Below, in pieces: positions 6,838 to 57,469 of a stretch of DNA of 64,000 bases. Origin of the DNA: Planctomycetota bacterium (lineage in GTDB: Bacteria; Planctomycetota; Phycisphaerae; Phycisphaerales; UBA1924); NCBI GenBank assembly GCA_020831805.1, contig JAFIFX010000011.1, forward strand, positions 4,648 through 68,647, in the 5' to 3' direction. Position 1 is the stretch's first letter. Every line of letters begins with the position of its first letter. The position numbers and the translations under genes were made by a program. The notes under the pieces were generated by a model, which worked only from the letters and a program-made list of their open reading frames with translations, ran no database searches and was not told the origin of the DNA.

Positions 6838-7404
6838 TCAAAGGCTTTCTTTCTCCGTGCCCTCTGCGGTTCGCCCCAAACCCCGCTCCGCTTCCCGCTG
6901 CGTCCCCGGCGTCCGCTGCGGTGAATCACCGGACGCCGCATCGCCGACACCCTCAACAACCCCCAGGACTCCCTCCCCCTCCAGAAACGCCCGCAGGATC
7001 GCCGCCGCCGCGATCGCGTCCCGGCGCATCTTCTTCTGTTTATGCGTCAACCCGGACCGCGCCATCCGTTCATCGGCCGCCATGGTGGTCCGGCGTTCGT
7101 CCACCAGGGTCACCGGCCTCCCCAACGCACCCACGATCCGCCCGGCGAACCCCCGCACCGCCTTCGCCCGCGGGCCTTCCGTCCCGTCCATATTCAGCGG
7201 CAGGCCCACGACCACCTCCACGGGTTCACCGCCGACGATGGCCCGAACCTGACCCGCAATCCCCCGAAGCAGGGCTTCCCCCCCCTCCCGGCCAATCGGA
7301 ATCTCCACCAGCCCCGCCGGCGAAGCGACCCCCGTCAGCCGGTCCCCGACCGCGATCCCCGTCCGCACATCCCCGAGATCGATCGCCACAACCCGCACCC
7401 CCAA
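6838..7404 (-). CDS. ruvX: Holliday junction resolvase-like nuclease RuvX/YqgF
   Basis: N-terminus VRVVAIDLGDVRTGIAVGD plus DERRTT and the C-terminal helix are typical of the YqgF family. The start is TTG at 7404, or GTG 6 nt downstream. Confidence 0.85.
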   Translation of the reverse strand: MGVRVVAIDLGDVRTGIAVGDRLTGVASPAGLVEIPIGREGGEALLRGIAGQVRAIVGGEPVEVVVGLPLNMDGTEGPRAKAVRGFAGRIVGALGRPVTLVDERRTTMAADERMARSGLTHKQKKMRRDAIAAAAILRAFLEGEGVLGVVEGVGDAASGDSPQRTPGTQREAERGLGRTAEGTEKESL

Positions 7405-8033: not shown

Positions 8034-10049
8034 TCAGTCCGATGCGGGGTCCGGCCGTTCGCGCGGCGCTGGTTCCCGCGGCGATGGTTCCCGTGGTACT
8101 GGTTCCCGTGGTGATGGTTCCCTCGGGGGCAGCGGCCAGGCCTCGGTCCTCTTGAGCATCTCGCCGAGCGCGGTCGCCCACGGGTCGTCCGGCCCCTTCA
8201 GCTCGGTGATCAGGTCCCGCGCCCGCTCGATGTAGACCACGCACGCCGGGTGGCGCACCTCGTAGAGCTTCAGCGCCGCGAGCGTCTGCCACACCACCGA
8301 CTCCATGGTCTTCTCGTCCGCCGTCCGGTCCGCGTTGATCCGCGCCGACTGTGCTGCCATGGGCAGCAGATTCTCGGTGTCCTCCGGCCGGATCAGCGGG
8401 AACCGCGAGACCACCTCCAGCAGCGCGATCGGCATTCCCGTCTTGTCCGAGATCGAGCGGATGATCGATTCCGCCCATTCACCGATGCTGCGATGGACGG
8501 TGTCGATCCGCTGCTGCGTCCGGGCTTCCATCCGCTCGGCGCGCTCCAGCGTTTCCCGCGCGTTCGCCGCGGTCTGTTCGGCCCACGCCTCGGCCGCGTC
8601 GCGCTGGGCCGCGGCCGTCGCCGACGCGATCTGAAACTCCGACCGCAACGATTCGCTCCGCTGATCCCATCGCCGTTCCGTCCACTGGTGCGTGCCCACG
8701 AACGCCGCCCCGGCGCCGAGCAGCAACGCGGCCGTGACCGGCGCGGCCGACCGCGCCAGCTTGCGCCGCGCGGCCCACCCGCCCGTGATCCCGGGAAGCG
8801 GCCGCCCCGCCAGCCAACGCTCCAACTGATCGCACCACGCCGTCACCGAGCACGGCCGCGACCGCGGGTCCGACGACATCGCGCCCAGGCACACCGCCCG
8901 CAGCTCGGCGCCCACCCAGGACGGGAACGATCGCTCGACCGGGACGCGATCCATCAGCAGGCCGTGCGCCTGCTGCGCGTGCTCGCCGTTCGGAAGCCGC
9001 CCCGTCAGCAGCCAGTACAGCAGCGTGCCCAGGCCGTACAGGTCCGCCGCCGGCGTCGGAAGCCCACCGTCCGAGAGCACCTCGGGCGCGACGAACGCCA
9101 GCCCGGCCTTCTCCGTGTACCGCCCGTGCGTGTCCAGCGGCTCGGGACGCAGCAGGCCGAGCCCCAGGTCCGTCAAAGCCAGCTCACCCGTGCGCGTCAC
9201 GATCACATTCGTCGGTTTGAGCCACCCGTGCGCCACGCCCATCGCGTGCAGCGGCTCGATCCCCCGCGCCACCCCCAGCGTGCGCCGGACCGCCTCGCGT
9301 GCCGCCGCCCGCCCCTCCAAAGCATCCCGACGCAACCGATCGCCGCGCACCAGCCGGTACACCAGGTACGCCTCGCCCGACGGCGCCACGCCCGCGTCGA
9401 TCAGCGGGACCACGGCGCCCCCGCCGGCACGCCGCAGCCGCTCCAGCTCCGCCGCAAAACGGTCCATCATCCCGGCCTGGTCGGACCGGCGGCGCAGCAT
9501 TTTGACCGCCACCGTCGGCGATCCCTCGCTCGTGTACGCCTCGCGGTCCACGGCTTCGTACACGGTCCCGTTCGGGCCCGATCCCACCGTCGCCAACAGC
9601 CGGTACCTCGGCTCACCGTCCACGCCCTCCGGACCGAAATCCCGGGGCAGGGGAACAGAGACGCCCTCGGCTTCCGACCCGCCATTCCGGAAACGCTCCA
9701 TCGCACGCCCCACCGCCGTCGCCGCCAGCGGGTGCGCCCGCGAGATCGATCGGCCGGCCGCGAGGTGGTCACGGCCCAGCAGAAGCGTCGATTCCAGAAC
9801 CGCCTCCACCGCCGCGCCGAGCACCGCATCGCTCTCGTACAGCCACGGCAAGGCGAGCCGGAACTCCTCGATCTCCACCACCTCGCCTTCCAGCCGCCGG
9901 AACCGCCCGTACTCTCGCACCGCGACCGCCAGCGCTTCTTCGTCCTCCGGCCCGGCCCCCGCCACGACGCGACGAAGATCGAACGACTCGCCCGAACGGA
10001 TCAACGCCCGCAGCCGCTCAAGATATCGGGTTTGTTCTGTTTCGTGCAT
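8034..10049 (-). CDS. Ser/Thr protein kinase-like membrane protein; catalytic loop is HGW rather than HRD, so possibly a pseudokinase
   Basis: Gly-loop GSGPNG, VAVKML, catalytic-loop region VAHGWLKPTNVIV, DLG and APE motifs. A TM helix (VTAALLLGAGAAFVG) and a helical ectodomain follow. The C-terminus has PREP repeats. ATG at 10049 was chosen; the ORF extends to GTG at 10085. Confidence 0.8.
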   Translation of the reverse strand: MHETEQTRYLERLRALIRSGESFDLRRVVAGAGPEDEEALAVAVREYGRFRRLEGEVVEIEEFRLALPWLYESDAVLGAAVEAVLESTLLLGRDHLAAGRSISRAHPLAATAVGRAMERFRNGGSEAEGVSVPLPRDFGPEGVDGEPRYRLLATVGSGPNGTVYEAVDREAYTSEGSPTVAVKMLRRRSDQAGMMDRFAAELERLRRAGGGAVVPLIDAGVAPSGEAYLVYRLVRGDRLRRDALEGRAAAREAVRRTLGVARGIEPLHAMGVAHGWLKPTNVIVTRTGELALTDLGLGLLRPEPLDTHGRYTEKAGLAFVAPEVLSDGGLPTPAADLYGLGTLLYWLLTGRLPNGEHAQQAHGLLMDRVPVERSFPSWVGAELRAVCLGAMSSDPRSRPCSVTAWCDQLERWLAGRPLPGITGGWAARRKLARSAAPVTAALLLGAGAAFVGTHQWTERRWDQRSESLRSEFQIASATAAAQRDAAEAWAEQTAANARETLERAERMEARTQQRIDTVHRSIGEWAESIIRSISDKTGMPIALLEVVSRFPLIRPEDTENLLPMAAQSARINADRTADEKTMESVVWQTLAALKLYEVRHPACVVYIERARDLITELKGPDDPWATALGEMLKRTEAWPLPPREPSPREPVPREPSPREPAPRERPDPASD
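8071..8130. repeat. 4 x 15-bp tandem repeat inside the kinase-like CDS, encoding (PREPx)4
   Basis: ggttcccgcggcgat / ggttcccgtggtact / ggttcccgtggtgat / ggttccctcgggggc. Confidence 0.8.
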
Positions 10050-10194
10050 GTTTGACTTCGCAACCGGATGTGAGCAACGAGCCACCCCAGCGGGTGAGTG
10101 TACAGCAGAATCGCCGGATCCCCAGCCCTCTCCGCCCGCCGATCCTCCAAATTCCAGGATCCAAGTTCAAAATCCACAGATCTGTGTTTCGGCC

Positions 10195-10228
10195 GCTCCG
10201 TTTGACACAGATCTGTGTCAAACGGAGC
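10195..10228. promoter_or_regulatory. Perfect 34-bp palindrome (candidate operator) in a divergent promoter region
   Basis: GCTCCGTTTGACACAGATCTGTGTCAAACGGAGC. Its 12-bp core CACAGATCTGTG also occurs at 10175-10186. Confidence 0.5.
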
Positions 10229-14469: not shown

Positions 14470-14850
14470 GTGCCCAAAGTCGTCCGCCTCGCCATGCCGC
14501 TCGCGTACCTGCGTCTCGCCGCCTGCCAGGTGGCGATCTGGGCCGGTTTCGCTGCGATCCCGGCGACCACGCTTGTCTACGAATCGCTCACACAACGCCG
14601 CATGACCCTCGCCAGCGCCGCCGGCATCACGACACTGGCGACCATGGCCGCCCTCACCCTCGGTGTGGTGGTGCTGCTCTTCAAGATCCTTCGCACAAAC
14701 CGCACCCTCAAGGCCAACCCCCACGCCTGCCTCAACTGCCTCTACGACCTCGCGCCCGACCAACGGATCTGCCCCGAATGCGGCCGCACCCAGAACCGCG
14801 AAGACCTCTCCCCCCGCTGGCGCGACGACCTCGGAACATCACAAGATTGA
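14470..14850 (+). CDS. Membrane protein with C-terminal CxxC...CPEC zinc ribbon
   Basis: 126 aa with a GTG start (alternative ATG at 14494). Hydrophobic helices (VAIWAGFAAIPATTLVY, ITTLATMAALTLGVVVLLF) are followed by ACLNCLYDLAPDQRICPECG. Confidence 0.6.
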   Translation: MPKVVRLAMPLAYLRLAACQVAIWAGFAAIPATTLVYESLTQRRMTLASAAGITTLATMAALTLGVVVLLFKILRTNRTLKANPHACLNCLYDLAPDQRICPECGRTQNREDLSPRWRDDLGTSQD

Positions 14851-14878
14851 ACCGCCGAACACCGGTGTGCCTCCCCCC
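14798..14878 (+). repeat. 81-nt direct repeat, copy 2
   Basis: See copy 1. It covers the last 17 codons, the stop and 28 nt downstream of gene 14470..14850. Confidence 0.85.
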
Positions 14879-14924
14879 GATGTCCACCTTTGTGCGCTGT
14901 TTCATGGACATCCCAAAATCCCCC

Positions 14925-14952
14925 TTGACCCCGCCCGGGTACCCTGTATCTT
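14925..14952 (+). promoter_or_regulatory. Sigma70-like promoter (TTGACC-N16-TATCTT), 7 nt upstream of the ATG at 14960
   Basis: TTGACC at 14925-14930 and TATCTT at 14947-14952. The spacing implies a leaderless or near-leaderless transcript. Confidence 0.5.
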
Positions 14953-14959
14953 CGTGGGC

Positions 14960-15613
14960 ATGAACACAACCCAAGCACGCCCCGCCCCCGCCCTCTCCGA
15001 CCTCGCCCACGCCCTTCTCAATGACTGGGACGACCCCGACCTGACCGAGCTGGACCTCTGCCGCCGCCACGCCCTGGCGCTCGACGAGCTCCACGCCCAC
15101 GCCGCCCGCCTCCCGTTCCAGCAGGCCCTGGCCCTCATCCGCGGCCTGCGCGAAGTCCGCCGCCCCTTCGTCCTCGCCCGCACCGAGGCCCACGCCGCCC
15201 GGACCCTGACCGCCCTGACCGAGCGCGACCCCGCCAGCGCCACTGCCGCCAAGGAGATCCGCCTGGCCGTCAAGGACCTGCTGCGCATTCTTGGAGCGGG
15301 GGGCTACCAGCCCCCCGATCGGGCGCAGCCCGATGCCCTCGCTCTTGGTGGGGCCGGCTTCCAGCCGGCCAATCGGCCGCAGGCCGACCCGCCTTCCTCC
15401 CCCGCGCCTGCGGGGGAGGTGGCACCGCGCAGCCGTGACGGAGGGGGTCTTGAGAGCACGGACGGATTGCGGCACGCCTCAGAACCCCCTCCGCCTCCGC
15501 TGCGCTCCGGCACCTCCCCCGGAAGCCCGGGGGAGGCGGCACCCGCACACACCCCCCGCAAACCCAAATACCCCCGCGGCACCAAGCCCCGCCCCAAACC
15601 CGTCAGCCGGTAG
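14960..15613 (+). CDS. Hypothetical protein; the C-terminal ~110 aa are encoded by a REP-like hairpin cluster
   Basis: ATG at 14960. The N-terminal ~110 aa are helical (LNDWDDPDLTELDLCRRHALALDELHAHAARL...). The frame stays open across repeat cluster 15291-15545. Confidence 0.45.
   Translation: MNTTQARPAPALSDLAHALLNDWDDPDLTELDLCRRHALALDELHAHAARLPFQQALALIRGLREVRRPFVLARTEAHAARTLTALTERDPASATAAKEIRLAVKDLLRILGAGGYQPPDRAQPDALALGGAGFQPANRPQADPPSSPAPAGEVAPRSRDGGGLESTDGLRHASEPPPPPLRSGTSPGSPGEAAPAHTPRKPKYPRGTKPRPKPVSR
15291..15545. repeat. Cluster of REP-like GC-rich hairpins lying inside ORF 14960..15613
   Basis: ggggggct-acc-agcccccc, atcgggc-gca-gcccgat, ggccggc-ttcca-gccggcc, cctccccc-gcgcctgc-gggggagg, ggagggggt...accccctcc and cctccccc-ggaagccc-gggggagg. 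Confidence 0.8.
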
Positions 15614-15622
15614 CATGGAGCG

Positions 15623-16447
15623 GTGCCGAAGAACACCCCAACCGACCACCCGCCCGCCCACTTCCACGGCATCCCGAAAGCCGGCCTGCGCTTCGGTGTG
15701 CGATGGCTCGCGATCATGCTCGCATCGGTCGTCGTCTGGATGGTCGGCGCGCTGATCCTGATCCGGGTGCTCCCGACCACCGTGCTGATCCGCGTCGTCT
15801 ATCTGCTCATCGGCTCGATCGTCGTTCTGTCCCTCGCGTGGCTCCCTCTGTTTACGGTTCGCTTCAACCGGCTCCGCAACCAGGTGGTGAACCACCCCGA
15901 CGCCTGCCTCAACTGCGCCTACGAAACCGTCGACCCCACCACGCACATCTGCCCCGAGTGCGCCCACCACTCCGACCGCGCGGCGCTCAACCGGTTCTGG
16001 CTCCGGTCGATCAAGGCCGACGCGTCACAAACCACGCCCGCCGCCGAGCACGAGCCCGCCGTCGTCGGCGGCATCCCCAAGATCGGCCAACGCTTCTTCT
16101 TCCGCTGGGTCAGCATCGTCTACATCTCGACCATGCTGGTGATCGCCCTGATCCCCGTCGCCTCCCTGGTCGGCCCGTTCCCAAGTCCGCTCTGGTTCCT
16201 GCCCGCCATCCCGATCGTCCTGATCACGCTCATCACCCTCATGGCCCTCCGCTACCGGGCCCTCCAGCGCCGGCTCCGGACCAACCCGGACGCCTGCCTC
16301 AACTGCGGCTACGAGACCGTCCATGCCCACACCCGCGTCTGCCCCGAGTGTGCCCATGTGTCCGACCGGGCCGAACTGAGCCGCAACTGGACAAGAGCCA
16401 TCAACCCCCTCAACCCCCCCAGCCCTCAGCCCCCAGCCCATATCTGA
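15623..16447 (+). CDS. Membrane protein with an internally duplicated TM + CxxC...CPEC zinc-ribbon module
   Basis: Two modules: GIPKAGLRFGVRW..ACLNCAYETVDPTTHICPECAHHSDRAALNRFW and GIPKIGQRFFFRW..ACLNCGYETVHAHTRVCPECAHVSDRAELSRNW. GTG start with TAGCAT 6 nt upstream. Confidence 0.65.
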   Translation: MPKNTPTDHPPAHFHGIPKAGLRFGVRWLAIMLASVVVWMVGALILIRVLPTTVLIRVVYLLIGSIVVLSLAWLPLFTVRFNRLRNQVVNHPDACLNCAYETVDPTTHICPECAHHSDRAALNRFWLRSIKADASQTTPAAEHEPAVVGGIPKIGQRFFFRWVSIVYISTMLVIALIPVASLVGPFPSPLWFLPAIPIVLITLITLMALRYRALQRRLRTNPDACLNCGYETVHAHTRVCPECAHVSDRAELSRNWTRAINPLNPPSPQPPAHI

Positions 16448-20181: not shown

Positions 20182-20241
20182 GGGGCAGGAATCCGGGACT
20201 GCGGCTTGACCGCCCCCCCCGGAACGACCGATATCCAGAGC

Positions 20242-21756
20242 ATGGATCTTCCTGCACTGCCCCCACGCACCATCCTCATCGGCACCCCCCAGACCTGCCG
20301 CGCCCTCGCCGCCGCTTTGGCCACCCTGCCCAGCCCACCGCCCATCGACGGCATGGTCACCCTCGACGGCGCCCCATCTCCTTCTCCAGTGGCCAGTGGC
20401 CAGTCCCAAGTCCCTCTCCTCGGAAGCGTCCACACCGTCGGCCTGATCTGCCGCCAGCGCGGCATCAAGCGGGCCATCATCACCCTGCCCGCCCGCCACC
20501 GCGCCTGGCACGCCGAGATCAGCCGCCAGCTCCGCGCCGAGGGCGTCGCCGAACGCGTCGTCCGCCCGCTCGACGAGCAACTGGAAGAAACCCCGACCGT
20601 CGCCGCCGGCTCGATCACCAGCTACAACGGCATCGACCTGGCCGAACTCGTCGGGCGCACGCCCCACGACATCGACGAGCACCTCGTCGGCTCGGTCATC
20701 CGTGGCCGGACCGTCCTGGTCACCGGCGCGGGCGGCTCGATCGGCTCCGAACTCGTCCGACGCATCGCCCGCTTCGCGCCCGAACGCGTCGTGCTGATGG
20801 AGCGATCCGAGAACGCCCTGTTCGAGATCGACCGCCAGCTCGCCGAGACCTGCCCCGGCGTCGCCCGCACCGCCCTGCTCCACGATGTCGTCGACGCCGA
20901 ACGCACCCTGGCCCACCTGGAACGCTGGAAGCCCCATGTCGTCTTCCACGCCGCCGCCCACAAGCATGTGCCGCTGATGGAGGACCACCCGGCCCACGCC
21001 GTGACGAACAACCTGTTCGGCACCAAGTCCATCGCCGACGCCGCGGTATCCTGCGGCGCCGAGCGGTTCGTGCTGATCTCGACCGACAAGGCGGTCAACC
21101 CCGCCTCGGTCATGGGCGCGACCAAGCGTCTGGCCGAGTGGTATGTGCAAAGCCTGGCCCAGCGCGTCCGCACCCGGATGAGCATGGTCCGCTTCGGCAA
21201 TGTCCTCGGCTCGAACGGCTCGGTCCTGACCATCTGGGCCGAGCAGGTCGCCCGGGGCGGGCCGATCACCGTCACCGACGAACGCATGACCCGCTACTTC
21301 ATGACCATCCCCGAGGCCGCCACGCTGGTGCTCCAGGCCGGCGCGATGGCCGGGTTCCACGGTCGCTGCGGCGAGGTCTTCGTCCTCGACATGGGCGAGC
21401 CGATCCCGATCCTGACCCTGGCCAAACGCTTTGTCCGCGCCTGCGGCCTGGAGCCGGCCGTGGCCGGCGCGCCCACCGAGGCCGGGCCCGGACGCATCCC
21501 CATCGTCCTCAGCGGCGCCCGCCCCGGCGAGAAACTGCACGAGCAGCTCTCCTACGACGCCGAGGAACTCTGCACCACCGCCCACCCGGGCATCTGGCGT
21601 CTGGACTCCGAGGCCGCCCCGGCCGCCGACGCGGTCGAGGCGTTGGTGTCCGACCTCGACGCCGCCCGGCACGAACGCTCCCGCCGCGCTGTGCTCGACG
21701 CCATGGCCCGGCACATGCCGACCCTGCGCCCCCCGATCGCCCCGGTCGCGGCGTGA
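20242..21756 (+). CDS. Polysaccharide biosynthesis protein, CapD/WbpM/PglF-like NDP-sugar 4,6-dehydratase/epimerase
   Basis: SDR core VLVTGAGGSIGSEL, HAAAHKHVPLME (YxxxK-type region), STDKAVNP and the N-terminal Rossmann-like ILIGTP... ATG at 20242 was chosen; the ORF opens at TTG 20206. Confidence 0.85.
   Translation: MDLPALPPRTILIGTPQTCRALAAALATLPSPPPIDGMVTLDGAPSPSPVASGQSQVPLLGSVHTVGLICRQRGIKRAIITLPARHRAWHAEISRQLRAEGVAERVVRPLDEQLEETPTVAAGSITSYNGIDLAELVGRTPHDIDEHLVGSVIRGRTVLVTGAGGSIGSELVRRIARFAPERVVLMERSENALFEIDRQLAETCPGVARTALLHDVVDAERTLAHLERWKPHVVFHAAAHKHVPLMEDHPAHAVTNNLFGTKSIADAAVSCGAERFVLISTDKAVNPASVMGATKRLAEWYVQSLAQRVRTRMSMVRFGNVLGSNGSVLTIWAEQVARGGPITVTDERMTRYFMTIPEAATLVLQAGAMAGFHGRCGEVFVLDMGEPIPILTLAKRFVRACGLEPAVAGAPTEAGPGRIPIVLSGARPGEKLHEQLSYDAEELCTTAHPGIWRLDSEAAPAADAVEALVSDLDAARHERSRRAVLDAMARHMPTLRPPIAPVAA
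20387..20421 (+). repeat. Third copy of the heptamer-periodic element seen upstream of ruvA/manC, here inside a CDS
   Basis: CAGTGGC CAGTGGC CAGTCCC AAGTCCC TCTCCTC compared with TTGTGGC GAGTGGC CAGTCCC CAGTCCC TATCCTC at 12931-12965. Confidence 0.6.
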
Positions 21757-21763
21757 GCGGGTT

Positions 21764-23080
21764 TCAGGGATCATCGGACCGGATGACCCGCTCGGCGACG
21801 AACTCACGGACCGTGATGGGTTCGGGGGTGATGGTGTAGGAGCCGTCGTCGTGCCAGGTGATGGACGGGAGTCGGGCGGCGTCATGCAGCACGACGATGA
21901 CCTTGGCCCGGACGCGGGTTTGCGGCTCGGTCAGGTGGACAGTCGCGGATGGATAGGGCAGGGGCGTGCCGGTCGGCGGATTGCGTTGCTGGCGTATCCG
22001 GTCGCGGATCGTCCAGTTGTTGGCGATGTCAAGGATTTGACGGCGTTGACCGCTGCGCTCGAGAGCCTTGCCGTGGCCGTCGATCTCGAAGCCGGCGAAG
22101 AAGTACAAACGATCGACGGCCGAGGTGCGGCGGCGATCGGCCCGCGCCTGGACGCTGATCTCGGTCAGCGGCTCCGAAGCGGGGCGGTGGATGATGTCAA
22201 GGCCGAGATCCGAGAACGCGAACCGCTCGACGATGTCGTTCGGCAAGCGCTCGGTGAGGATCTGTTCGGCAACCCAATCCATCTGGCGCCTCGGCGGGAT
22301 GCCCCGGCCGCTTTCCCAGGCGTCGATGATGCGGGCGGCCAGGTTGGTTCGCTCCGCGTCGGAGAGGCGGTCGGTGTCCAGCGCCTCCATGGCATGAGCC
22401 TCGGTCGGGGCGTTGTGGAGCAGCATCGCCCGGGGCAGCGGCACACGGAACCCCGAGGGAGTGACGAACTGTGCGCCGGACACCAGCAACGCCAGCAGAA
22501 TCATCAAGACGCCCAGACCCGTGGCGCGCCGGTGGCGGACGCGCGGGGTGGCCGTCGCGGCGGAGGCGGTCGGCAGGGGGTGGGCGCACTCGGGGCACAT
22601 CATTGGGAAGGAGAGGTCCTCGACGGGGTAGGCGCAGCGCGGGCAGCTCAGCGGGCGCGGCTCGCGCCCGGTCTCGGCCTCGTAGATGACCATCACGCCC
22701 GCGGCGATCAGCGGCAGACCGACCATGGCGAACACCACCATGCCGGGCATAACAGGGTTGGCCACGATGATCATGACCGGCATGGTGCCGATGAGCGTGT
22801 GGAGCGTTGAACTCTGGAGGTTCATCGGGTAGGGGAACACGTGCAGGCCGTCGCGGCGGTGCGGGAGTAGGCGACGCTGGATGATCGTGAGACAGAGAAG
22901 GGATGGGACCCAGATCGCCAGCGCGTAGAAGGGTTTCCACATGGAATAGGCCGCGGAGAGATAGAGGCCCCACATGAGGGCGTAGAGCACAACGAAGAAC
23001 GCGGCCTGGATGCGGATCAGGCGGCGCATGGCCTGGATCTGATCGGGATCGGTGATCGGGATGGGTTCCGAATGGGGCAT
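21764..23080 (-). CDS. Zinc-ribbon multi-pass membrane protein, tandem paralog 1
   Basis: MPHSEPIPITDP.. start (ORF opens at TTG 23086). About 4 TM helices, SCPRCAYPVEDLSFPMMCPECAHPL, one more TM, and a ~250-aa C-terminal domain ending ITWHDDGSYTITPEP. Confidence 0.7.
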   Translation of the reverse strand: MPHSEPIPITDPDQIQAMRRLIRIQAAFFVVLYALMWGLYLSAAYSMWKPFYALAIWVPSLLCLTIIQRRLLPHRRDGLHVFPYPMNLQSSTLHTLIGTMPVMIIVANPVMPGMVVFAMVGLPLIAAGVMVIYEAETGREPRPLSCPRCAYPVEDLSFPMMCPECAHPLPTASAATATPRVRHRRATGLGVLMILLALLVSGAQFVTPSGFRVPLPRAMLLHNAPTEAHAMEALDTDRLSDAERTNLAARIIDAWESGRGIPPRRQMDWVAEQILTERLPNDIVERFAFSDLGLDIIHRPASEPLTEISVQARADRRRTSAVDRLYFFAGFEIDGHGKALERSGQRRQILDIANNWTIRDRIRQQRNPPTGTPLPYPSATVHLTEPQTRVRAKVIVVLHDAARLPSITWHDDGSYTITPEPITVREFVAERVIRSDDP

Positions 23081-23238
23081 GATCAATCAACTATCGCATA
23101 TCATCGCAACGACAGACGCTTGGAGCGATCTGGGACTTGGGGCGAGGGTATTCGGTTCTTGCTGCTCGTGCGAGCGAAAAGCGACAAGGTCGCGCAAACG
23201 GCGCACGATCGTGGTCATCGCGTGCCGGGCTCGCGGGT

Positions 23239-24555
23239 TTATGGAGACGGGTGGATCGTGGTTTCGGCGCTGAGTTCGTGGGTGGTCAGTGGTTCGGGGG
23301 TGATGGTGTAGGTGCCGTCGTCGTGCCAGGTGATGGTGGGCGCGGCGGTCCAAGGATGGGGGATCACGAAGACGATGATGCGGGCGCGGACGCGGGTTGG
23401 GCGGTCGATGGCCAGGGTGTGGGTGGGGTATGGGAGCGGGGTAAGGTTGCTTTCGCGGTAGCGCTGGGCGTTGCGGTCGCGTTGTTCGAGGGTGGTGTCG
23501 AACCCGTACAGCGGGTAGTCGCGGGTAGCGCGGGCAACCGGTCCGTTGGCGTCGAACTCGAAGCCGGCGAAGAAGTAGCGGACATCGATATCAGGGCTGT
23601 AGAACGGCGGGGCGCCGGCGATGCTGACGCGGAACGGTTCGCCGGCGGGAACCGGGGTGTCGTGGATGATGCGCAGGTCGAAGCCGTCGAAGGCGTAGCG
23701 GTCGGTGAAGGTTGAATCGAGGTTGCCCGCGGCGATCTCGTGGGCGAACCAGTCGACTTGATCGTTGATCTCGATGGGTTGCTTGCGGCGGGCGCGTTCG
23801 CGGAGGATGCGGTCGGCCAGGCGGGCGCGCTGGGTGGGGTTGAGGGCGTCGGTGTCGAGGGTGCGCAGGGCTTCGGATTCGATCGACGCGAGCAGGCGGT
23901 GGGCCGGGCCGGGCAGGGCGCGGTAGAACGCGTCGGGCGCGTTGCGGATCAGGAAGATGAAGAGCAGGCCGGCCGCGATGGAGCCGGCGCCGGACCAGAG
24001 CACGCGTGGGCGGGTGGTTCGGGCGGCGCTCTGGCGGTCGGCGTCGGCAGGTTCGAGGGGGTGGGCGCACTCGGGGCACGGGGTCGGGAGGCTGAGCCCC
24101 GCGAGCGGGTAGTCGCAGTTCGGGCACGCGGGCTCGATGGCCCGGCGGCCGAACAGGCCGTACGCGATGGCGACGATCCCGGCGGCGATCAGCGGGACGC
24201 CGATCAACGCGGTGTACGCGGTGGTGGGCATGAACGGGTCGGCCGGGATCGCGATGAACGGCATGAGCGTCATGAGTCCGACGCCCATGAAGAAGATGAG
24301 CGGAAAGGGGTCGGGGAGAAGCGGGGATTCGTCTTTCGGAAGTCGGAGTGAACGGGTGTGCAGGCTGTGGAAGACATAGAAGCCGATCAGGAACGGCAGC
24401 GGCGCGTAGATGCGGATCGCGAACACGGTTGTGTGTAGATAGCACGCCCAGACGGCGATGTAGGCGAGCACGACGCAGGCGATCATGGCGACGGCCGCAC
24501 GGCGGGCGCGGGCGAGGTGGCGGGGGTCGGTGATGACGGCGTATCGGTGGGGCAT
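23239..24555 (-). CDS. Zinc-ribbon multi-pass membrane protein, tandem paralog 2
   Basis: MPHRYAVITDP.. start. About 4 TM helices, ACPNCDYPLAGLSLPTPCPECAHPL, one TM, and a C-terminal domain ending ITWHDDGTYTITPEPLTTHE. Confidence 0.7.
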   Translation of the reverse strand: MPHRYAVITDPRHLARARRAAVAMIACVVLAYIAVWACYLHTTVFAIRIYAPLPFLIGFYVFHSLHTRSLRLPKDESPLLPDPFPLIFFMGVGLMTLMPFIAIPADPFMPTTAYTALIGVPLIAAGIVAIAYGLFGRRAIEPACPNCDYPLAGLSLPTPCPECAHPLEPADADRQSAARTTRPRVLWSGAGSIAAGLLFIFLIRNAPDAFYRALPGPAHRLLASIESEALRTLDTDALNPTQRARLADRILRERARRKQPIEINDQVDWFAHEIAAGNLDSTFTDRYAFDGFDLRIIHDTPVPAGEPFRVSIAGAPPFYSPDIDVRYFFAGFEFDANGPVARATRDYPLYGFDTTLEQRDRNAQRYRESNLTPLPYPTHTLAIDRPTRVRARIIVFVIPHPWTAAPTITWHDDGTYTITPEPLTTHELSAETTIHPSP

Positions 24556-24562
24556 GGGGGGA

Positions 24563-24586
24563 AGAGACGGAGAGACGGAGAGACGG
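24563..24586. repeat. 3 x 8-nt tandem repeat (agagacgg) immediately upstream of the paralog 2 start
   Basis: On the coding strand it reads CTCCGTCT CTCCGTCT CTCCGTCT CTTCCCCCC ATG. Confidence 0.7.
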
Positions 24587-24690
24587 AGTGGTGCAAGGGA
24601 GGGCGTTGGCGGGACGGTGCTTTGGGCGTTGGTTCGGCCCGCTCACTGGCGTTCGGGGCTTCTCTTTGGCTTGCTTCCTGGGCTTGCGCG

Positions 24691-25977
24691 TCAGGGGGCG
24701 ATGTGGATGGTGGTCTCGATGGTGCGTTCGTGGGTGGTCAGTGGTTCTGGGGTGATGGTGTAGGTTCCGTCGTCGTGCCGGGTGATGGTGGGGATGGCGC
24801 CGCGGGGGGTGGTGACGGCGATGAGGTCGATGCGGATGTGCAGGGGGCTGGGGGTGTCGGGGGTCAGGGAGGTGAATGGGGCGGAGGTGCTGTCCTTTGC
24901 GAGCGTGTGGTGGAGCGACATGGCGAAATGGGCTTTGTGCGGGTCGGCGCCGGTGGGCGGGGCGTTGTTGATCGAGAAGCCGCGGGTGAAGTAGTAAAAA
25001 GATGGATTCATGTGGTGGTGCGCGGGTGGCTGGCCGGTCAGGGTGATGGCCATGGTGGCGCCGACGCGGCGGATGGGGTCGGCGTGGATTTCGATGCGGT
25101 TGCCCTCCGTGGCGAAGCGTTCGGCCTGCTCGGGGGTGAGGTGGCCGTCGACGAAGCGCTGGCCGAGCCAGGCGAGCTGGTCCTGGATGGCGAACTCGCT
25201 GGTGGTCGTGCGGGCGTCGAGGATGCGGTCGGTCAGGCGGGCGGTCTGGTCTGGGGTTAGGCTGGCGAGGTTGATGGTGTTGAAGGCGGGGGTGGTCGGG
25301 GCCATGGCGAGGCGGGCATTGATGGGCAGGGTCTGGTAGATGCTGGACGGGGCCGCGACGGCGGTGACCAGCAGGGCGACGACCGAGAGCAGGATGGCGG
25401 CGCCCGCGGCGAGACGCTGGGGACGGCGTTCGGCGGCGGTGTGCTCGCAGTCGTCGGGGGAGGCGAGGCGGTGGGCGCACTCGGGGCAGTTGGTGGGGAA
25501 GTTCAGGCCCTCGGCGGGGTAGTCGCAGGCGGGGCAGCAGGGCGGGCCGGGGACGCGGACGCGCGAGCCGGTGTGGATGAGGGTGAAGCCGAGGACGACG
25601 AAGGGCGGGACGGCGATGACATACCCGACGGGGTCGCCGGCGAAGGGTTCGTTGAAGGCGACGAAGAACAGGACACCGATGTTGACCCAGACGGCGTTCA
25701 GGCTGAGGCTGTAGCGGGTGAGCATGCGGTGGGGCAGGCAGGGGCTGGTGCGCGGGGAGCAGCCGAGCGTTTCGCGGTGCTCGTAGAAGATGAGTGCGTA
25801 GCCGGCGGACATCGCGGCCGCGGCGATGGCGAGGCCAAGGGCGTAGGGCGCGGTGGTGATGGCGCCGATGATCGCGAGGGCATAGAGCGCGACGCCGGCG
25901 GCGAGGAAGCGGCGGGCGGCCCGCTCGGCGAGGGGGAAGCGGTCTTCGGGGATGCGGGTCCAGTGGTGGTTGAACAT
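24691..25977 (-). CDS. Zinc-ribbon multi-pass membrane protein, tandem paralog 3
   Basis: About 4 TM helices, CCPACDYPAEGLNFPTNCPECAHRL, one TM, and a C-terminal domain ending ITRHDDGTYTITPEPLTTHE. Confidence 0.7.
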   Translation of the reverse strand: MFNHHWTRIPEDRFPLAERAARRFLAAGVALYALAIIGAITTAPYALGLAIAAAAMSAGYALIFYEHRETLGCSPRTSPCLPHRMLTRYSLSLNAVWVNIGVLFFVAFNEPFAGDPVGYVIAVPPFVVLGFTLIHTGSRVRVPGPPCCPACDYPAEGLNFPTNCPECAHRLASPDDCEHTAAERRPQRLAAGAAILLSVVALLVTAVAAPSSIYQTLPINARLAMAPTTPAFNTINLASLTPDQTARLTDRILDARTTTSEFAIQDQLAWLGQRFVDGHLTPEQAERFATEGNRIEIHADPIRRVGATMAITLTGQPPAHHHMNPSFYYFTRGFSINNAPPTGADPHKAHFAMSLHHTLAKDSTSAPFTSLTPDTPSPLHIRIDLIAVTTPRGAIPTITRHDDGTYTITPEPLTTHERTIETTIHIAP

Positions 25978-26034: not shown

Positions 26035-26061
26035 AAAAAACGGCCCGCGTTGGGCGGGCCG
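26035..26061 (-). terminator. Rho-independent terminator downstream of rpsA
   Basis: On the minus strand: CGGCCCGC-CCAAC-GCGGGCCG followed by TTTTTTCATT. Confidence 0.75.
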
Positions 26062-26119: not shown

Positions 26120-27508
26120 TCAGAGTTTGAGGTCGCCGAGGCCGAGGCCGAGGCCGCCGGCTTCGCCGAGGCCGCCGGAGCCCTTGGACTTCTTGCCTTC
26201 CTGTTTCTCGCGGAGTTTGGCCTGCTCGCGCATGCGGCGGAGTTGGGGGGTCTCTTTGAGGATCTCGGCGGGGTCGCGGTCGTCGCGGTCGCCCCGGCCC
26301 TTGCCGCGGCCTCGTCCCCCGCCGCCGCCGGGGCCGGCCTGGTCGGCGGGGCGTTCCTTGGTCTGCTTGATGGAGAGGGAGATCTTGCGGGAGTCGGGGT
26401 CGATCTTGAGGACCCGGACCTGGACGACCTCGCCCTTCTGGACGGCGTCCTCGACCTTGTTGATGCGTTTGAAGTCGATCTCGGAGATGTGGACGAGGCC
26501 CTCGACGCCGGGTGCGACCTCGACGAAGCAGCCGAACTCGGTGATGTTGGTGACCTTGCCGGTGAGGGTGGCGCCCTCGACGATCTCTTCCTTGGCGGCG
26601 GCGAAGGGGTCGGACTGGAGCTGCTTCATGCCGAGGCTGATGCGGTTGGCTTCCCAGTCGATCTTGAGGATCTGGACGGTGACCTTCTGGCCCTCGGAGA
26701 CGAAGCGTGCGACGGACTTGGCACCGTGGTTGACGCGTTCGTGGGTGAGGTCGTTGAGGTGGACGAGGCCGTCGACGCCGCCGAGATCGACGAAGGCGCC
26801 GAAGTCCATGATCTTGCGGACGACGCCCTCGATGGTGTCGCCCTCCTTGAGGGCTTCCTTGAGGGTGGCGGCGGCCTTTTCGCGTTCTGCCTGGATGATC
26901 TCGCGTCGGGAGAGGACGATGTTGCCGGTGCCGCGGCGGTCGAGCTTCTGGACCTGGCAGGTGAGTTTCTCGCCGACGAAGACGGAGAGGTCGGGGATGC
27001 GGTTGATGTCGATCTGGGAGGCGGGCATGAAGGCGCGGTGGTTGGCGATCTCGAGTTCGAGGCCGCCCTTGTTGACGCCGGTGACGCGGGCCTCGACGAC
27101 CTGGCCGATCTCGAGCATCTCCCAGTCGGCCTTCTGGACCGCGCCGGGCAGGGCGCAGATGTAGAGCGACTCGGTGGGCTCGTAGCGTTGGACGACGACC
27201 TCGAGCTGTTCGCCGACCTTGGGTTTTTCCTGGCCGTCCTTCCACTGGGTGGATTCGACGACGCCGAGTTCCTTGGGGCCGAACTCGACGAAGACATCGG
27301 TGGCGCCGACGGAGACGACCAGGCCGGTGCGGTGTTCGCGTCCGCCCTTGACCTCGCGCGGGCCGCGGATGGTCTTCTTCGCGGAGGGATCGGCCGCGCC
27401 GTGGTCGGCGAGATCGTCCATGGCGGCGTCGATCTCGGCGAGTGTTTCGGCGTCGAGGGCCGGGGGCTTGGCGGTGGTCGGTTCGATGGGTTTGTTGGGT
27501 TCGGTCAT
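26120..27508 (-). CDS. rpsA: 30S ribosomal protein S1
   Basis: Repeated S1/OB motifs (e.g. GTVVEARVTGVNKGGLELEI, GDTIEGVVRKIMDFGAFVDLGGVDGLVHLNDL, GATLTGKVTNITEFGCFVEVAPGVEGLVHISE). Basic Gly/Arg-rich C-terminal tail. Confidence 0.9.
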   Translation of the reverse strand: MTEPNKPIEPTTAKPPALDAETLAEIDAAMDDLADHGAADPSAKKTIRGPREVKGGREHRTGLVVSVGATDVFVEFGPKELGVVESTQWKDGQEKPKVGEQLEVVVQRYEPTESLYICALPGAVQKADWEMLEIGQVVEARVTGVNKGGLELEIANHRAFMPASQIDINRIPDLSVFVGEKLTCQVQKLDRRGTGNIVLSRREIIQAEREKAAATLKEALKEGDTIEGVVRKIMDFGAFVDLGGVDGLVHLNDLTHERVNHGAKSVARFVSEGQKVTVQILKIDWEANRISLGMKQLQSDPFAAAKEEIVEGATLTGKVTNITEFGCFVEVAPGVEGLVHISEIDFKRINKVEDAVQKGEVVQVRVLKIDPDSRKISLSIKQTKERPADQAGPGGGGGRGRGKGRGDRDDRDPAEILKETPQLRRMREQAKLREKQEGKKSKGSGGLGEAGGLGLGLGDLKL

Positions 27509-27652: not shown

Positions 27653-28729
27653 TTATCCCAGTGCTGCGGAGGCGGTGGCGCCGAGGGAGTGCTTGATGGC
27701 GTCGACGATGCGCTCGGCGGTGCGGACATTGACGAAGCCGGCGGTGGCGTCGATGGCGGGGCGTTCGCCGGTGCGGACGGCGTCGAGGAAGGCCTCGATC
27801 TCCTTGACGATCGGCTCGCCCTGGTCGATCTCGAGCGGCTCGATGTTGACCAGCTCGGTCCAGTCCAGGTCGGTCAGATCGGCGCCCTGGCGGAGCTGCT
27901 CGCGGACCTCGCGCATCTGGAGTTCGTTGGCGGTACGCCGGATCATGGTGCCGGTTTTGGCGGCGTAGTCGATCTTGATGTAGCCGGATTCGCCGGTGAT
28001 GCGGGTGACGCGTTCGGTCTTGAGGGCGAGGCGCGAGGCGGTGATGTTGGCGACGCACTGGCCGCCGCCCCTGGATTCGGGGAGGTTCCAGAGGAGGCGG
28101 GCGTTGCAGAGGTCTTCGAACTCGGAGACGACGGCGACGCCGGAGGCCTGGATTTCGTCGGGCTCGCGCGAGTCCATGAGCATGAGGACGACATCGAGGT
28201 CGTGGATCATCATGTCCATGACGACACCGATGTCGATGGAGCGGAAGGTCATGGGGGAGACGCGGTGGACCTCGATGAACCGGGGGGTAATGGGCTCGCC
28301 GGTGTGCTCGGTGGCCTTGCGCATGGCGCGCATGATGGGGTTGAAGCGTTCGATGTGGCCGACCATGAGGCAGGCGCCGGTGCGGTCGGCGATGGTCTTG
28401 AGCTGGTCGGCCTCGTCGGCGGAGGGCGCGAGGGGTTTCTCAATCAGGCAGGCGACGCCGGCCTCGAGGAAGGGCCGGGCGGAGTTGAGGTGGTAGGTGG
28501 TGGGGACGGCGATGGAGACGGCGTCGACGCCGGCGTCGAGCAGTTCCTGCTCGCTGGCGAAGGCGCGGGTGCCGTGCTGCTCGGCGACGCGGGCGGCGGT
28601 CTCCGGGTTGGCGTCGACGATGCCGACGAGTTCGACGCCCTCCATCTGGGCGTAGACGCGCGCGTGGTGGCGGCCCATGCGTCCGACGCCGACGGCGCCG
28701 CAGCGGAGGGGGCGGTTGGGGGTGGTCAT
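27653..28729 (-). CDS. Gfo/Idh/MocA family oxidoreductase
   Basis: N-terminal Rossmann LRCGAVGVGRMGRHHARVY, an EKPLA motif (CLIEKPLAPS) and a GHIERFNP-type motif. AGGAGGG lies upstream. Confidence 0.85.
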   Translation of the reverse strand: MTTPNRPLRCGAVGVGRMGRHHARVYAQMEGVELVGIVDANPETAARVAEQHGTRAFASEQELLDAGVDAVSIAVPTTYHLNSARPFLEAGVACLIEKPLAPSADEADQLKTIADRTGACLMVGHIERFNPIMRAMRKATEHTGEPITPRFIEVHRVSPMTFRSIDIGVVMDMMIHDLDVVLMLMDSREPDEIQASGVAVVSEFEDLCNARLLWNLPESRGGGQCVANITASRLALKTERVTRITGESGYIKIDYAAKTGTMIRRTANELQMREVREQLRQGADLTDLDWTELVNIEPLEIDQGEPIVKEIEAFLDAVRTGERPAIDATAGFVNVRTAERIVDAIKHSLGATASAALG

Positions 28730-28790: not shown

Positions 28791-29120
28791 TCAGGCCAGC
28801 GCGTCGATGGCGGCGGCGAGGTCTTCCTTGTTGGTCAGGCCGACGAACTTGCGGGCGACCTGGCCGTCCTTAAAAATGATGACGGTCGGGATGGCGGAGA
28901 TGCCGTAGCGTGACGCGGCTTCCTTGTGGGCGTCGATATCCATCTTTCCGACGACGGCCTTGCCGGCGTACTTCTCGGCGAGCTCGTCGATGGTGGGGCC
29001 GAGGACCTTGCACGGCATGCACCACTCGGCCCAGAAGTCCACGACGACGGGGGCGTCGGCTTTGAGGACCTCCTGGTCGAAGTTGTCGTCGGTGAAGGCC
29101 TTGACATGGGGGTTGGCCAT
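28791..29120 (-). CDS. trxA: Thioredoxin (active site WCMPC)
   Basis: 109 aa: VVDFWAEWCMPCKVLGP...GISAIPTVIIFKDGQ. Confidence 0.9.
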   Translation of the reverse strand: MANPHVKAFTDDNFDQEVLKADAPVVVDFWAEWCMPCKVLGPTIDELAEKYAGKAVVGKMDIDAHKEAASRYGISAIPTVIIFKDGQVARKFVGLTNKEDLAAAIDALA

Positions 29121-41748: not shown

Positions 41749-43062
41749 ATGATCATGCCGATCGGGACGGCCTTGGCCTGTCGATGTTCAGACGGCGTGC
41801 GTGCCGACGGGGTGGTCACCGCGTCGCGTGACGGCGTGGTGGAGGCCCGGTTCGAGGGCAAGGGCCCGTTCGAGAAGGGGTCCTGCGTCGAGATTCGGTT
41901 CGCCCATGAAGAGGATGGGCGTGTGTGGGTGGTCGGCGCGTGCGTGGAGCGTGTCGGGTCCGCCGGCGTCAGTGTGCTCGCGTTGAGCGGCGAGGCCGCG
42001 CCCGAGAACCAGCGGGCGGCGTACCGCGTGGTGACGGCCTGCGCGGATGTCTTGGCGGACATCGGACGCCAGCGTGACTGCCGCGTGCTGGATGTCAGCG
42101 AGGGCGGGCTGGCGACCGAGCTGGTCAACGCGCCGCACGCGGGCACGGTCTGCGAGATCAAGCTGCGCGCTTTCGGGCGTACGGTTCAGGGCCGGTTCGT
42201 CCTGCGCCACGCCCGGCCGGCGCGGCTGTGCCCCGGCGGCGAGGTGTCGCGGTGCGGTCTGCAGGTGGCCGGCGGGCAGCCGGAACTGACCCGCGCGATG
42301 CGCGAGCTGGTCATGGAAGCCCAGCGCGCCCAGCTGCGCAACCGCTCGCGACTGACCGGTCGCACGCGGGCCGCGACCGCCGCCGATGCGCCGTCGAACG
42401 CGGGGGCGACGGCCGAGCGGACGCCGCCCGACGGATCGCCCGCTCCGGCTGGCGATCAGCCCGAATCCAAACAGCCCTCGACGCCGGGCGACATCGGCTC
42501 GCTGCTGGTGCGCCTGATGCTGGACCAGATCATCGGCAAGCCCATGCCGTTCTCGCTGCGCGACCGGGAGGGGCGGATCGTGGTCGGCCGGGGCGAGGTG
42601 ATCGACGCGCAGGCCGCCGCCCGCATCGCGACGAGCGATCTGGAGATCTGCGAGGACTGGTTCGCCCCGGACCCGAAGGCGAAGGGCGCCGAACGACGCC
42701 TGTGCGAGCGTCGGGCGTGCCACGCCGAGGTGCGTGTGTGGCTGATCGAGCCGGACGGCGCCCGGTCGGTCCGCGCCGAGATGGTTGACATCTCCCGCGG
42801 CGGGGCCGGCGTGCGCACGCAGGGCGTGGCGCACCGCGGCGAGGTCGTGGTGGTGCAGTTCGGCTCGGGGCCGATCGGCGGCTGGATCGTGGCCCGCGTC
42901 GAGAGTTCGGTGGTCACGCCGGACTCGGCGATCTCGCGGCTGGGCCTGCGGTTCATGCAGTCGTGCGTGCAGCACACGCCGATGCCGCCGCCCGCGGACA
43001 TGCGGCGCATCGTCGAGCCGTTCCGCGGCACGGAACGCCAGCGCCGCGTGCAGTCGGCCTGA
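41749..43062 (+). CDS. Multi-PilZ-domain protein (putative c-di-GMP effector)
   Basis: Two canonical motif sets: QRAAYR...DVSEGG and ERRLCERR...DISRGG. A PilZ-like N-terminal barrel is also present. ATG with AGGAAGGAGG upstream. Confidence 0.7.
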   Translation: MIMPIGTALACRCSDGVRADGVVTASRDGVVEARFEGKGPFEKGSCVEIRFAHEEDGRVWVVGACVERVGSAGVSVLALSGEAAPENQRAAYRVVTACADVLADIGRQRDCRVLDVSEGGLATELVNAPHAGTVCEIKLRAFGRTVQGRFVLRHARPARLCPGGEVSRCGLQVAGGQPELTRAMRELVMEAQRAQLRNRSRLTGRTRAATAADAPSNAGATAERTPPDGSPAPAGDQPESKQPSTPGDIGSLLVRLMLDQIIGKPMPFSLRDREGRIVVGRGEVIDAQAAARIATSDLEICEDWFAPDPKAKGAERRLCERRACHAEVRVWLIEPDGARSVRAEMVDISRGGAGVRTQGVAHRGEVVVVQFGSGPIGGWIVARVESSVVTPDSAISRLGLRFMQSCVQHTPMPPPADMRRIVEPFRGTERQRRVQSA

Positions 43063-43100
43063 GCCGGGAAGCCCCCTGCCCCGTCGGGTATGCTGGGGCC

Positions 43101-43559
43101 GTGAACGAGGCCGAACGACTCGCCGGGTATCTCAAGGGACGCGACGCGCCGTGCCCGGGCTGCGGGTACAACCTGCGCGACCTGATAGGCGAGACCTGCC
43201 CCGAGTGCGCCGAGACGCTCTCGGTGGTGAAGATCATTTACAACGCGCCGCGGGCGTCCGTGGCAAGCATGATCGTTGGATACCTGGGGCTCGCGGCCGG
43301 GTCGGGCGTACTCGTGGCCCTCTGGCCGCGTGTGATGACGCTGGATGTCAGGCCTTGGGGTCGACCGACATGGGACGACCTCCGGCTCCTAGCGATCATC
43401 GGGGCCACGCTGGGCATGGTGGTCGTGATCATCAAATGGAACGACTGGTCTGAGGAGATGACCCGCCGATCGGCCCGGTTCCGCTGGTCCTGGGCGGCGG
43501 CGTGTTTTCTGACCGTGCCGCTCGTGTGGCTGGTCGGGCGGTTGGTGGGGCGTTGGTGA
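43101..43559 (+). CDS. Membrane protein with N-terminal CxxC...CPEC zinc ribbon
   Basis: GTG start with TATGCT 6 nt upstream. PCPGCGYNLRDLIGETCPECAE is followed by 3-4 hydrophobic helices. Confidence 0.6.
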   Translation: MNEAERLAGYLKGRDAPCPGCGYNLRDLIGETCPECAETLSVVKIIYNAPRASVASMIVGYLGLAAGSGVLVALWPRVMTLDVRPWGRPTWDDLRLLAIIGATLGMVVVIIKWNDWSEEMTRRSARFRWSWAAACFLTVPLVWLVGRLVGRW

Positions 43560-57233: not shown

Positions 57234-57469
57234 CCGGAAGCGACGGGGCGGGGAAGCGGCGGCGGTCATTCCGGCTCGACCGGCCCCAGTGCCGCTCGTG
57301 CGGCGGGTGTGCGTGCGGGGCGGCGCGGGTGGTCAAGACGCCGGTGAATCTGGTCCGGCTCGGTGTGTACACGATGATCGGGGCGGTGCTGGGGATGGGG
57401 CTCGGCCGGGCGCTCTGGGCGTGCCCGGGGTGCGGGGCGCGGTTCTGGGCGGGGGTGGACGGTGAGTGA
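57230..57469 (+). CDS. Possible small membrane protein with two CxxC pairs
   Basis: 79-aa frame. The GTG overlaps the LuxR stop (GTGTGA) and the 3' end overlaps the next start by 8 nt. CRSCGGCAC, a TM helix (LVRLGVYTMIGAVLGMGLG) and CPGCG. No other support. Confidence 0.3.
   Translation: MTGSDGAGKRRRSFRLDRPQCRSCGGCACGAARVVKTPVNLVRLGVYTMIGAVLGMGLGRALWACPGCGARFWAGVDGE

Follow-up and report, generated by a model that had tools for sequence, protein, structure and literature searches.

What are the three adjacent genes at positions 21764 to 25977 of a 64,000-nucleotide stretch of Planctomycetota DNA (assembly GCA_020831805.1, contig JAFIFX010000011.1, positions 4,648 to 68,647), and why do their products share a nearly identical peptide close to the C-terminus? 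The whole stretch, below called the window, comes from a metagenome-assembled genome (MAG) of Phycisphaerales and itself has a G+C content of about 65-75%. The genes represent a genuine, well delimited and undescribed family of membrane proteins; its parts are familiar, the whole resembles known zinc-ribbon membrane adaptors, and what is said below of its function is inferential. An earlier reading of the sequence alone (the original prediction) had placed here three co-directional open reading frames (ORFs) of 438, 438 and 428 amino acids (aa), and the coordinates proved exact, with all three on the minus strand:

21764..23080, minus strand: g1, 438 aa from ATG; clade B, deep-branching extra copy (ORF, alignment, tree)
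23239..24555, minus strand: g2, 438 aa; clade B (ORF; the copy modelled with AlphaFold2)
24691..25977, minus strand: g3, 428 aa; clade A, first gene past rpsA (ORF, tree)

The three proteins align over their full length, g2 and g3 being 37% and 28% identical to g1, and are true, old paralogs of one uncharacterised family. Started from the ATG, g1 is identical to the database protein P0017, and it scores 372 bits with profile A4; an alternative TTG start at 23086 would give 440 aa. The products of g2 (P0001, LAT64_14120 in NCBI) and g3 (P0013, LAT64_14115) are both annotated as 'hypothetical protein, Phycisphaerales bacterium', and the g2 orthologue P0006 is 55% identical to g2. That the ORFs might be shadow frames, or the family confined to this genome, had been named as possible objections. 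The former is excluded by homologues of the same length in other genomes and by a confident AlphaFold2 model of full-length g2 (predicted local distance difference test, pLDDT, 90.4; predicted TM-score, pTM, 0.74; alignment of 17 sequences), and the latter by homologues in other Phycisphaerae. We consider it very probable that the genes, their topology and the zinc site are real.

A profile search covering 1.84 billion cluster representatives gave 3766 clusters at E<=1e-3, of which 455 pass E<=1e-10 and 63 pass E<=1e-30. Among the 150 best matches, most extend over the query from the third or fourth transmembrane (TM) helix to the C-terminus; the least significant of all 3766 probably cover the ribbon and helices only. 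Word-indexed search yielded just 16 relatives, all of 423-464 aa, and a second such search with profile A4 added no members. All members with a named source are hypothetical proteins of Phycisphaerales or Phycisphaerae MAGs. Among GTDB species genomes, alignment A5 found three loci only, all from Phycisphaerales MAGs and two of them from Phycisphaeraceae, and no related locus was found among the IMG/VR viral contigs. The family thus appears to be restricted to Phycisphaerae.

The hydropathy profiles of g1-g3 show four TM helices, arranged as two hairpins, a loop of 44-55 aa rich in lysine and arginine that contains the ribbon, a fifth helix (TM5) and a tail of 211-232 aa. The distribution of lysine and arginine assigns the N-terminus and the ribbon to the cytoplasm and the tail to the far side of the membrane, and the secondary structure of the AlphaFold2 model agrees with the topology from hydropathy. 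Both the architecture of the original prediction (about four TM helices, a ribbon, one more helix and a large C-terminal domain) and its layout, with the ribbon inside, a single-helix link and the large domain outside, are borne out by these analyses. The ribbon follows the pattern C-x2-C-x-Y-x10-C-P-E-C, in the cytoplasmic loop between TM4 and TM5. As in the Cys4 ribbon class, it has two CxxC knuckles, and these are invariant in 64 diverse members of the family.

22586..22645, minus strand: zinc ribbon of g1, C146-x2-C149-x-Y151...C162-P-E-C165 (invariant alignment columns)
24067..24126, minus strand: zinc ribbon of g2, C144-C163 (alignment, family conservation)
25477..25536, minus strand: zinc ribbon of g3, C148-C167 (alignment)
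23242..23940, minus strand: outer (periplasm-side) domain of g2, residues 206-438 (AlphaFold2 of the domain alone, pLDDT 93.4, pTM 0.86)

In the g2 model, helices 11-40, 45-50 plus 53-69, 84-102 and 110-135 correspond to TM1 to TM4, and helix 183-205 to TM5. Short strands 4-7, 76-79, 137-140 and 176-179, the first two of which belong to the N-terminus and the TM2-3 loop, surround the ribbon (residues 144-163) on the cytoplasmic face, and together with it they may build up a small folded platform. The outer domain starts with a helical bundle of six short helices (207-289), which is followed by a nine-strand immunoglobulin (Ig)-like sandwich (293-434) with one inserted helix, 356-368. The peptide shared by the paralogs forms a beta-hairpin late in this sandwich (strands 407-410 and 416-419). 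Structure prediction, one of the checks proposed with the original prediction, thus gave a confident fold of the outer domain, and this fold has no significant match in the PDB.

Conservation was assessed in the 64 members. In g2 numbering, only C144, C147, Y149, C160, E162 and C163 are invariant, and P161 is found in 94%. Besides P161, conservation reaches 86% or more at G126, R137, G189, P215, L246, W269, G305, G331, W410 and a leucine column that is H219 in g2; with the limit set at 83%, P377 and G414 are added. G414 stands at 83% and D413 at 73%; H411 is not conserved in the wider family, while H411, D412 and D413 are all conserved within the close subfamily. The most variable and most gapped region is 341-380. 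No conserved polar residues were found inside the TM helices, and the conserved columns of the outer domain contain no catalytic-looking constellation of residues. This strongly indicates that purifying selection is focused on two parts of the protein. One is the ribbon, where it extends to Y149 and E162, neither of them a metal ligand; the other is the final hairpin of the sandwich, whose W-H-D-D-G turn is, on the same strong indication, the most constrained part of the outer domain.

This hairpin corresponds to the conserved C-terminal block of the three genes:

21818..21862, minus strand: C-terminal block of g1, ITWHDDGSYTITPEP (DNA windows, orthologue alignment, codon test)
23290..23334, minus strand: C-terminal block of g2, ITWHDDGTYTITPEP (same analyses)
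24742..24786, minus strand: C-terminal block of g3, ITRHDDGTYTITPEP (same analyses)

The blocks lie within 2-4 nucleotides of the positions given in the original prediction, and they are near the C-terminus as claimed there. They are not at the protein end itself, since the motif IT(W/R)HDDG(S/T)YTITPEP is followed by another 16-17 residues. The TPEP ending was tried as a candidate PEP-CTERM signal and rejected: what follows it is a polar beta-strand of 16-17 residues (LTTHELSAETTIHPSP) without a hydrophobic helix, and NCBIfam gives no match.

The near-identity of the block DNA had been ascribed to gene conversion or very strong constraint. The block does stand out at the DNA level: in windows of 20 codons its identity is 0.72-0.78, compared with 0.3-0.6 over most of the gene length. 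However, it is not unique in this respect, since the zinc-ribbon block is conserved equally well (0.72-0.77). The same peptide is also conserved in orthologues and paralogs from other genomes, and in the degenerate form I-x-W-x-x-D-G...P it is conserved across the wide family. At identical residues of the block, the same codon is used in 60 of 69 cases (87%) by paralogs within a genome and in 251 of 299 cases (84%) between genomes. As codon identity between genomes is about that within genomes, constraint at the protein level explains the observation and conversion is not needed. Within the window, same-codon use is higher in the block (36 of 44) than outside it (218 of 347). This excess is modest and is consistent with the composition of the block, in which Ile, His, Tyr, Asp and Thr have nearly one preferred codon each, ending in C; the G+C content at third codon positions (GC3) of family genes is 0.80-0.96. 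In a rough neighbour-joining tree without bootstrap, g3 falls in clade A, together with the genes that stand first in the array in other genomes, and g2 and g1 fall in clade B, together with those at later positions. Such grouping by gene position across genomes implies that the duplications predate the speciations. Synonymous sites among g1-g3 are saturated at 28-37% protein identity. From the codon comparison, the near-identical block DNA is best read as the result of purifying selection on the peptide combined with very strong bias to C-ending codons. A recent conversion homogenising the 3' block of the three copies could draw on the elevated DNA identity and on the same-codon excess within the window. 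With the codon identity between genomes, the high GC3, the equally conserved ribbon block and the age of the paralog clades all against it, we consider conversion very improbable and reject it. More generally, near-identical DNA blocks in paralogs at about 90% GC3 need not imply gene conversion.

The genes occupy a fixed genomic slot. On the minus strand of the window, the order is trx, gfo, rpsA, g3, g2, g1, and a convergent capD gene, itself preceded by a hybrid histidine kinase gene, follows the array:

28791-29120, minus strand: trx, thioredoxin (window gene order)
27653-28729, minus strand: gfo, Gfo/Idh/MocA oxidoreductase (window gene order)
26120-27508, minus strand: rpsA (window gene order)
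26041..26061, minus strand: terminator-like hairpin CGGCCCGC-CCAAC-GCGGGCCG followed by TTTTTT; 8 G-C pairs plus T6, just past rpsA and 64 nucleotides before the g3 start
20206-21756, plus strand: capD, CapD-type dehydratase, convergent with g1 and 8 nucleotides from its stop

Given the strong hairpin after rpsA, read-through from rpsA into the array is probably absent in the window genome. A weak terminator-like hairpin was also observed between g2 and g1. In locus L012 of a relative, the family gene starts 21 nucleotides past rpsA.

The slot trx-gfo-rpsA followed by one or more family genes is found again at seven other loci. Its copies are always adjacent and co-directional. A convergent capD gene is found downstream within a few kilobases in L001, L003, L007, L012 and L014; none is present within the region covered in L008. 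Sulfotransferase-like and BON-domain genes occur nearby in the relatives' loci. The content of the slot is as follows:

window: A-B-B'
L001 and L003: A-B-short
L007: A-short-B
L005: B-short
L014: A-B, overlapping by 4 nucleotides (7001-7004)
L008/L009 and L012: single copy

The overlap at 7001-7004 in L014 comprises the stop of the first paralog and the start of the second, which suggests translational coupling in that genome. The short forms, of 236-260 aa, retain the TM helices, the ribbon and TM5 and have no outer domain; they match the family by hhalign with a probability of 96%, and profile comparison places them at positions 16-209. They always stand beside the full-length genes:

L001 (L006 is part of the same contig), 9443-10153: short form
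L003, 6949-7662: short form
L007, 7152-7904: short form
L005, about 9384-10199: short form

The window has no short form, and a third full-length copy (g1) is found in its place. Between the window and the other loci, the flanking proteins are 74-91% (Gfo), 69-84% (RpsA), 59-76% (Trx) and 58-89% (CapD) identical, as against 23-55% for the family proteins. Thus the family gene is always retained, yet it evolves several times faster than its neighbours. The survey of phyletic distribution and neighbourhood that had been proposed as a further check thus found named members in Phycisphaerae only and the slot conserved in seven other loci, which, judged by gene order, is the pattern of a vertically inherited core gene. 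Dispersed paralogs also exist; one follows a receiver-only response regulator, and others are found close to flagellar hook genes and to DUF6044. The protein P0121 of L012 (8001-10247, 748 aa) seems to join the family to a DM13 domain (PF10517). Within this ORF, positions 8524-9276 encode, in another frame, the C-terminal sandwich of the family (profile positions 346-439). Given this frame, the long ORF is likely to reflect a frameshift or two genes called as one, and the fusion was rejected as functional evidence.

The original prediction could name no family for these proteins, and this statement stands. Scans of g1-g3 against Pfam, NCBIfam and PADLOC gave no model at threshold (for PADLOC, which covers anti-phage defence, no family at E<=0.1), and scans of the 64 members against Pfam and NCBIfam gave only sub-threshold zinc-ribbon signals: DZR in 5 of 64, Zn_ribbon_4 in 3 of 64, and rubredoxin-like and HypA ribbons. 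A sequence profile search of the PDB retrieved only C2H2 zinc fingers matching through the 'CPECG..F/W' knuckle (160-187), and these were judged spurious. Foldseek found no match at E<=0.001, either for the full model against PDB and BFVD or for the outer domain against PDB. Its best matches are small sandwiches of Ig/FN3-like type, namely nanobodies, CARDB, the SoxZ-like TT0351, FtrA/P19 and Omp28, with TM-scores of at most 0.45; for the outer domain against PDB, the best E-value is 0.017, again with generic Ig-like folds. Literature searches retrieved no description of a matching family. The parts (helices, Cys4 ribbon, Ig-like sandwich) are therefore generic, and it is their combination and the sequence family that are undescribed in the libraries searched.

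Several known families resemble parts of the architecture. The DZR (PF12773), Zn_ribbon_4 (PF13717) and RUBY_RBDX (PF21349) families share the two CxxC/CPxC knuckles of a Cys4 ribbon; however, the matches fall short of the gathering scores, are seen in no more than 5 of the 64 members and are uninformative about the membrane and outer parts. In DUF2614/UPF0295 YgzB proteins (PF11023; PRK02935), as here, membrane helices are followed directly by a small zinc ribbon. The best sub-threshold alignment with PF11023 pairs residues 116-167 of g2 with profile positions 41-93 of 111. Of g1-g3, only g2 matches, with 14.1 bits against a cutoff of 21 (E 0.055); the PRK02935 score is 13 against 108. YgzB proteins are found in Firmicutes, have about 115 aa and are not known to have a fifth helix or an outer domain; their function is likewise undescribed. 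Zinc-binding anti-sigma factors (zf-HC2, PF13490), such as RsrA, RslA and ChrR, may couple a cytoplasmic zinc site to a membrane span and an extracytoplasmic domain. The present family differs from them in having no HxxxCxxC motif, a Cys4 site in the middle of the protein, several membrane passes and no adjacent cognate gene for an extracytoplasmic function (ECF) sigma factor. PF13490 matched neither g1-g3 nor any of the 64 members.

The closest analogy is to ZitP of Caulobacter crescentus, which consists of a zinc_ribbon_5 domain (PF13719), a TM helix and a DUF3426 domain (PMC5182063, PMC5182065). Its cytoplasmic CXXC-x19-CXXC ribbon binds PopZ, its periplasmic DUF3426 domain recruits CpaM, and a truncated form without the periplasmic domain keeps part of the function (PMC5182063). 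In both cases a cytoplasmic CxxC...CxxC ribbon is linked through the membrane to a periplasmic domain of uncertain biochemical activity, and the partly functional truncation parallels the short forms described above. However, ZitP has one TM helix, an N-terminal ribbon and a 19-residue spacer, whereas the family has five TM helices and, between TM4 and TM5, a ribbon with invariant tyrosine and glutamate and a 12-residue spacer between its knuckles. The host phyla also differ. PF13719 is not among the Pfam matches of g1-g3 (E<=1) or of the 64 members (E<=0.01), and DUF3426 has no Pfam match in either set. As none of the features tested for membership (PF13719, DUF3426, a single TM helix) is present, the family may work like ZitP and is not to be classified with it.

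How, then, might these proteins act? Since there is no conserved catalytic or pore-like feature and the two constrained patches lie on opposite sides of the membrane, the most likely role is that of a non-enzymatic adaptor or scaffold spanning the envelope, working by analogy with ZitP as a mixed assembly of paralogs; we put this forward tentatively. The two patches would be small motifs of surface type. The zinc ribbon would dock a cytoplasmic partner or mediate self-association, and the outer domain would hold an envelope partner through the conserved hairpin. The A and B paralogs are old, always adjacent and, in L014, overlapping, and they are accompanied by the short form; this arrangement suggests a mixed oligomer, in which A, B and, in relatives, the short form would probably assemble into one complex.

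Several points weigh against this interpretation. Zinc binding is presumed from the Cys4 pattern and from profile matches below threshold, and hetero-oligomerisation is suggested by gene arrangement only. The contrast of 23-55% identity with 58-91% in the neighbours is more in keeping with relaxed or diversifying selection than with a fixed machine. Moreover, no functionally suggestive neighbour is consistently linked, the dispersed paralogs occurring in unrelated contexts. An extended form of the interpretation, in which A, B and the short form would make up an envelope machine that is specific to Phycisphaerae, inherited vertically and kept next to rpsA at a housekeeping locus, with the ribbon platform and the periplasmic hairpin organising lineage-specific cell biology such as envelope organisation or FtsZ-independent division, seems to us improbable. 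If it held, the juxtamembrane 'CxxCxY...CPEC' ribbon on other small membrane proteins would mark a shared cytoplasmic docking system.

Among the other functions considered, a transmembrane signalling device is compatible with the layout of outer domain, membrane helices and cytoplasmic metal-binding module: the outer domain would sense a cue from the envelope or from outside the cell, for which the fast-evolving, partly gapped residues 341-380 could be the site of ligand specificity, and the ribbon would sequester or release a sigma factor or response regulator. The dispersed paralog P0110 indeed lies 235 nucleotides downstream of a receiver-only response regulator, and an ECF sigma gene is found about 6 kb from P0077. 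However, no zf-HC2 (HxxxCxxC) or other anti-sigma profile matches g1-g3 or the 64 members, no sigma or regulator gene accompanies the family in the conserved slot of the loci examined, and the short forms retain the ribbon without the sensor domain. The term 'anti-sigma-like' of the original prediction consequently finds no support, as the motif is missing and the neighbours are trx, gfo, rpsA and capD. We regard this specific mechanism as unlikely; a generic transmembrane signalling or adaptor role is possible.

The invariant Cys4 site could alternatively be a redox-sensitive zinc switch or serve metal handling, with the His-Asp-Asp turn as a second site. H411, D412 and D413 are conserved in the close subfamily, a thioredoxin gene lies three genes upstream in every locus, and there are weak sub-threshold matches to rubredoxin-like and HypA ribbons. 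However, trx-gfo-rpsA is housekeeping synteny and not a functional operon, with the terminator-like hairpin parting rpsA from g3 in the window; in the wider family only W410 and G414 of the turn exceed 80%, D413 being at 73% and H411 not conserved; and the Foldseek matches to metal-binding Ig-like proteins (CARDB, FtrA/P19) are not significant. This makes the switch improbable, and we hold equally little confidence in an accessory role in assembly or export of an envelope polymer connected with the adjacent CapD-type polysaccharide genes. The latter would account for the convergent capD gene, 8 nucleotides from the g1 stop and within a few kilobases in the five relatives' loci listed above, and for the sulfotransferase-like and BON-domain genes close by. 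Yet capD is on the opposite strand and is not seen in the L008 region covered, the Pfam and NCBIfam scans gave no similarity to Wzx, Wzy, Wzz or glycosyltransferase families, and the TM helices lack conserved polar residues.

The Phycisphaerae are planctomycetes that are abundant but seldom cultured, and their envelope and cell biology are little understood. Here they have a clade-specific membrane family that keeps to one core locus in all related genomes examined and has a confident predicted fold for which no solved relative was found in the PDB. The practical value is that of a candidate new domain family and of a target for first genetics in cultured Phycisphaerae, the Cys4 ribbon, Y149, E162, W269 and the W-x-x-D-G hairpin offering themselves for mutation.

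The ribbon motif also occurs elsewhere in the window. The regular expression C..C.[YFW]-x(5-20)-CPEC has seven matches in the six-frame translation of the window, as against none in 200 shuffles. Besides the family genes, the following ORFs carry a ribbon:

14494-14850, plus strand: small membrane ORF with two TM helices and one CLNCxY...CPEC ribbon unit
15623-16447, plus strand: neighbour of the preceding ORF, with the same unit of two TM helices and ribbon twice
42963-43559, plus strand: ribbon CPGCGYNLRDLIGETCPECA followed by TM helices; strict match to the motif
about 57378-57971, plus strand: looser ribbon CRACGYAL...CPECG with a longer spacer, adjoining TM helices

The first two have no Pfam family above threshold (DZR scores 26.6 bits against a cutoff of 27.3). 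ORF 14494-14850 overlaps a long ORF, 14663-15613, in a different frame, and either may be coding. According to hhalign, these ORFs are related to the family through the ribbon only. On this sequence evidence, the juxtamembrane ribbon seems to be a module that this genome uses repeatedly, and its position beside membrane helices in at least four other small ORFs of the 64-kb window hints at a lineage-wide docking module.

Two further observations concern the window as a whole. ARAGORN reported a 93-nucleotide 'tRNA-???' with a four-base anticodon (gctg) at 49174-49266 on the plus strand; Rfam is empty there even at E<=1, and this is probably a false positive. Near 18-22 kb, where the genes change from plus to minus orientation, the GC skew of the plus strand switches from about -0.2 to values of +0.2 to +0.37. 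On either side of this flip the coding strand is strongly C-rich (about -0.37 for g3), and the flip tracks the direction of transcription, with proteins rich in Thr, Pro, His and Ala and codons ending in C, and is not obviously a replication landmark.

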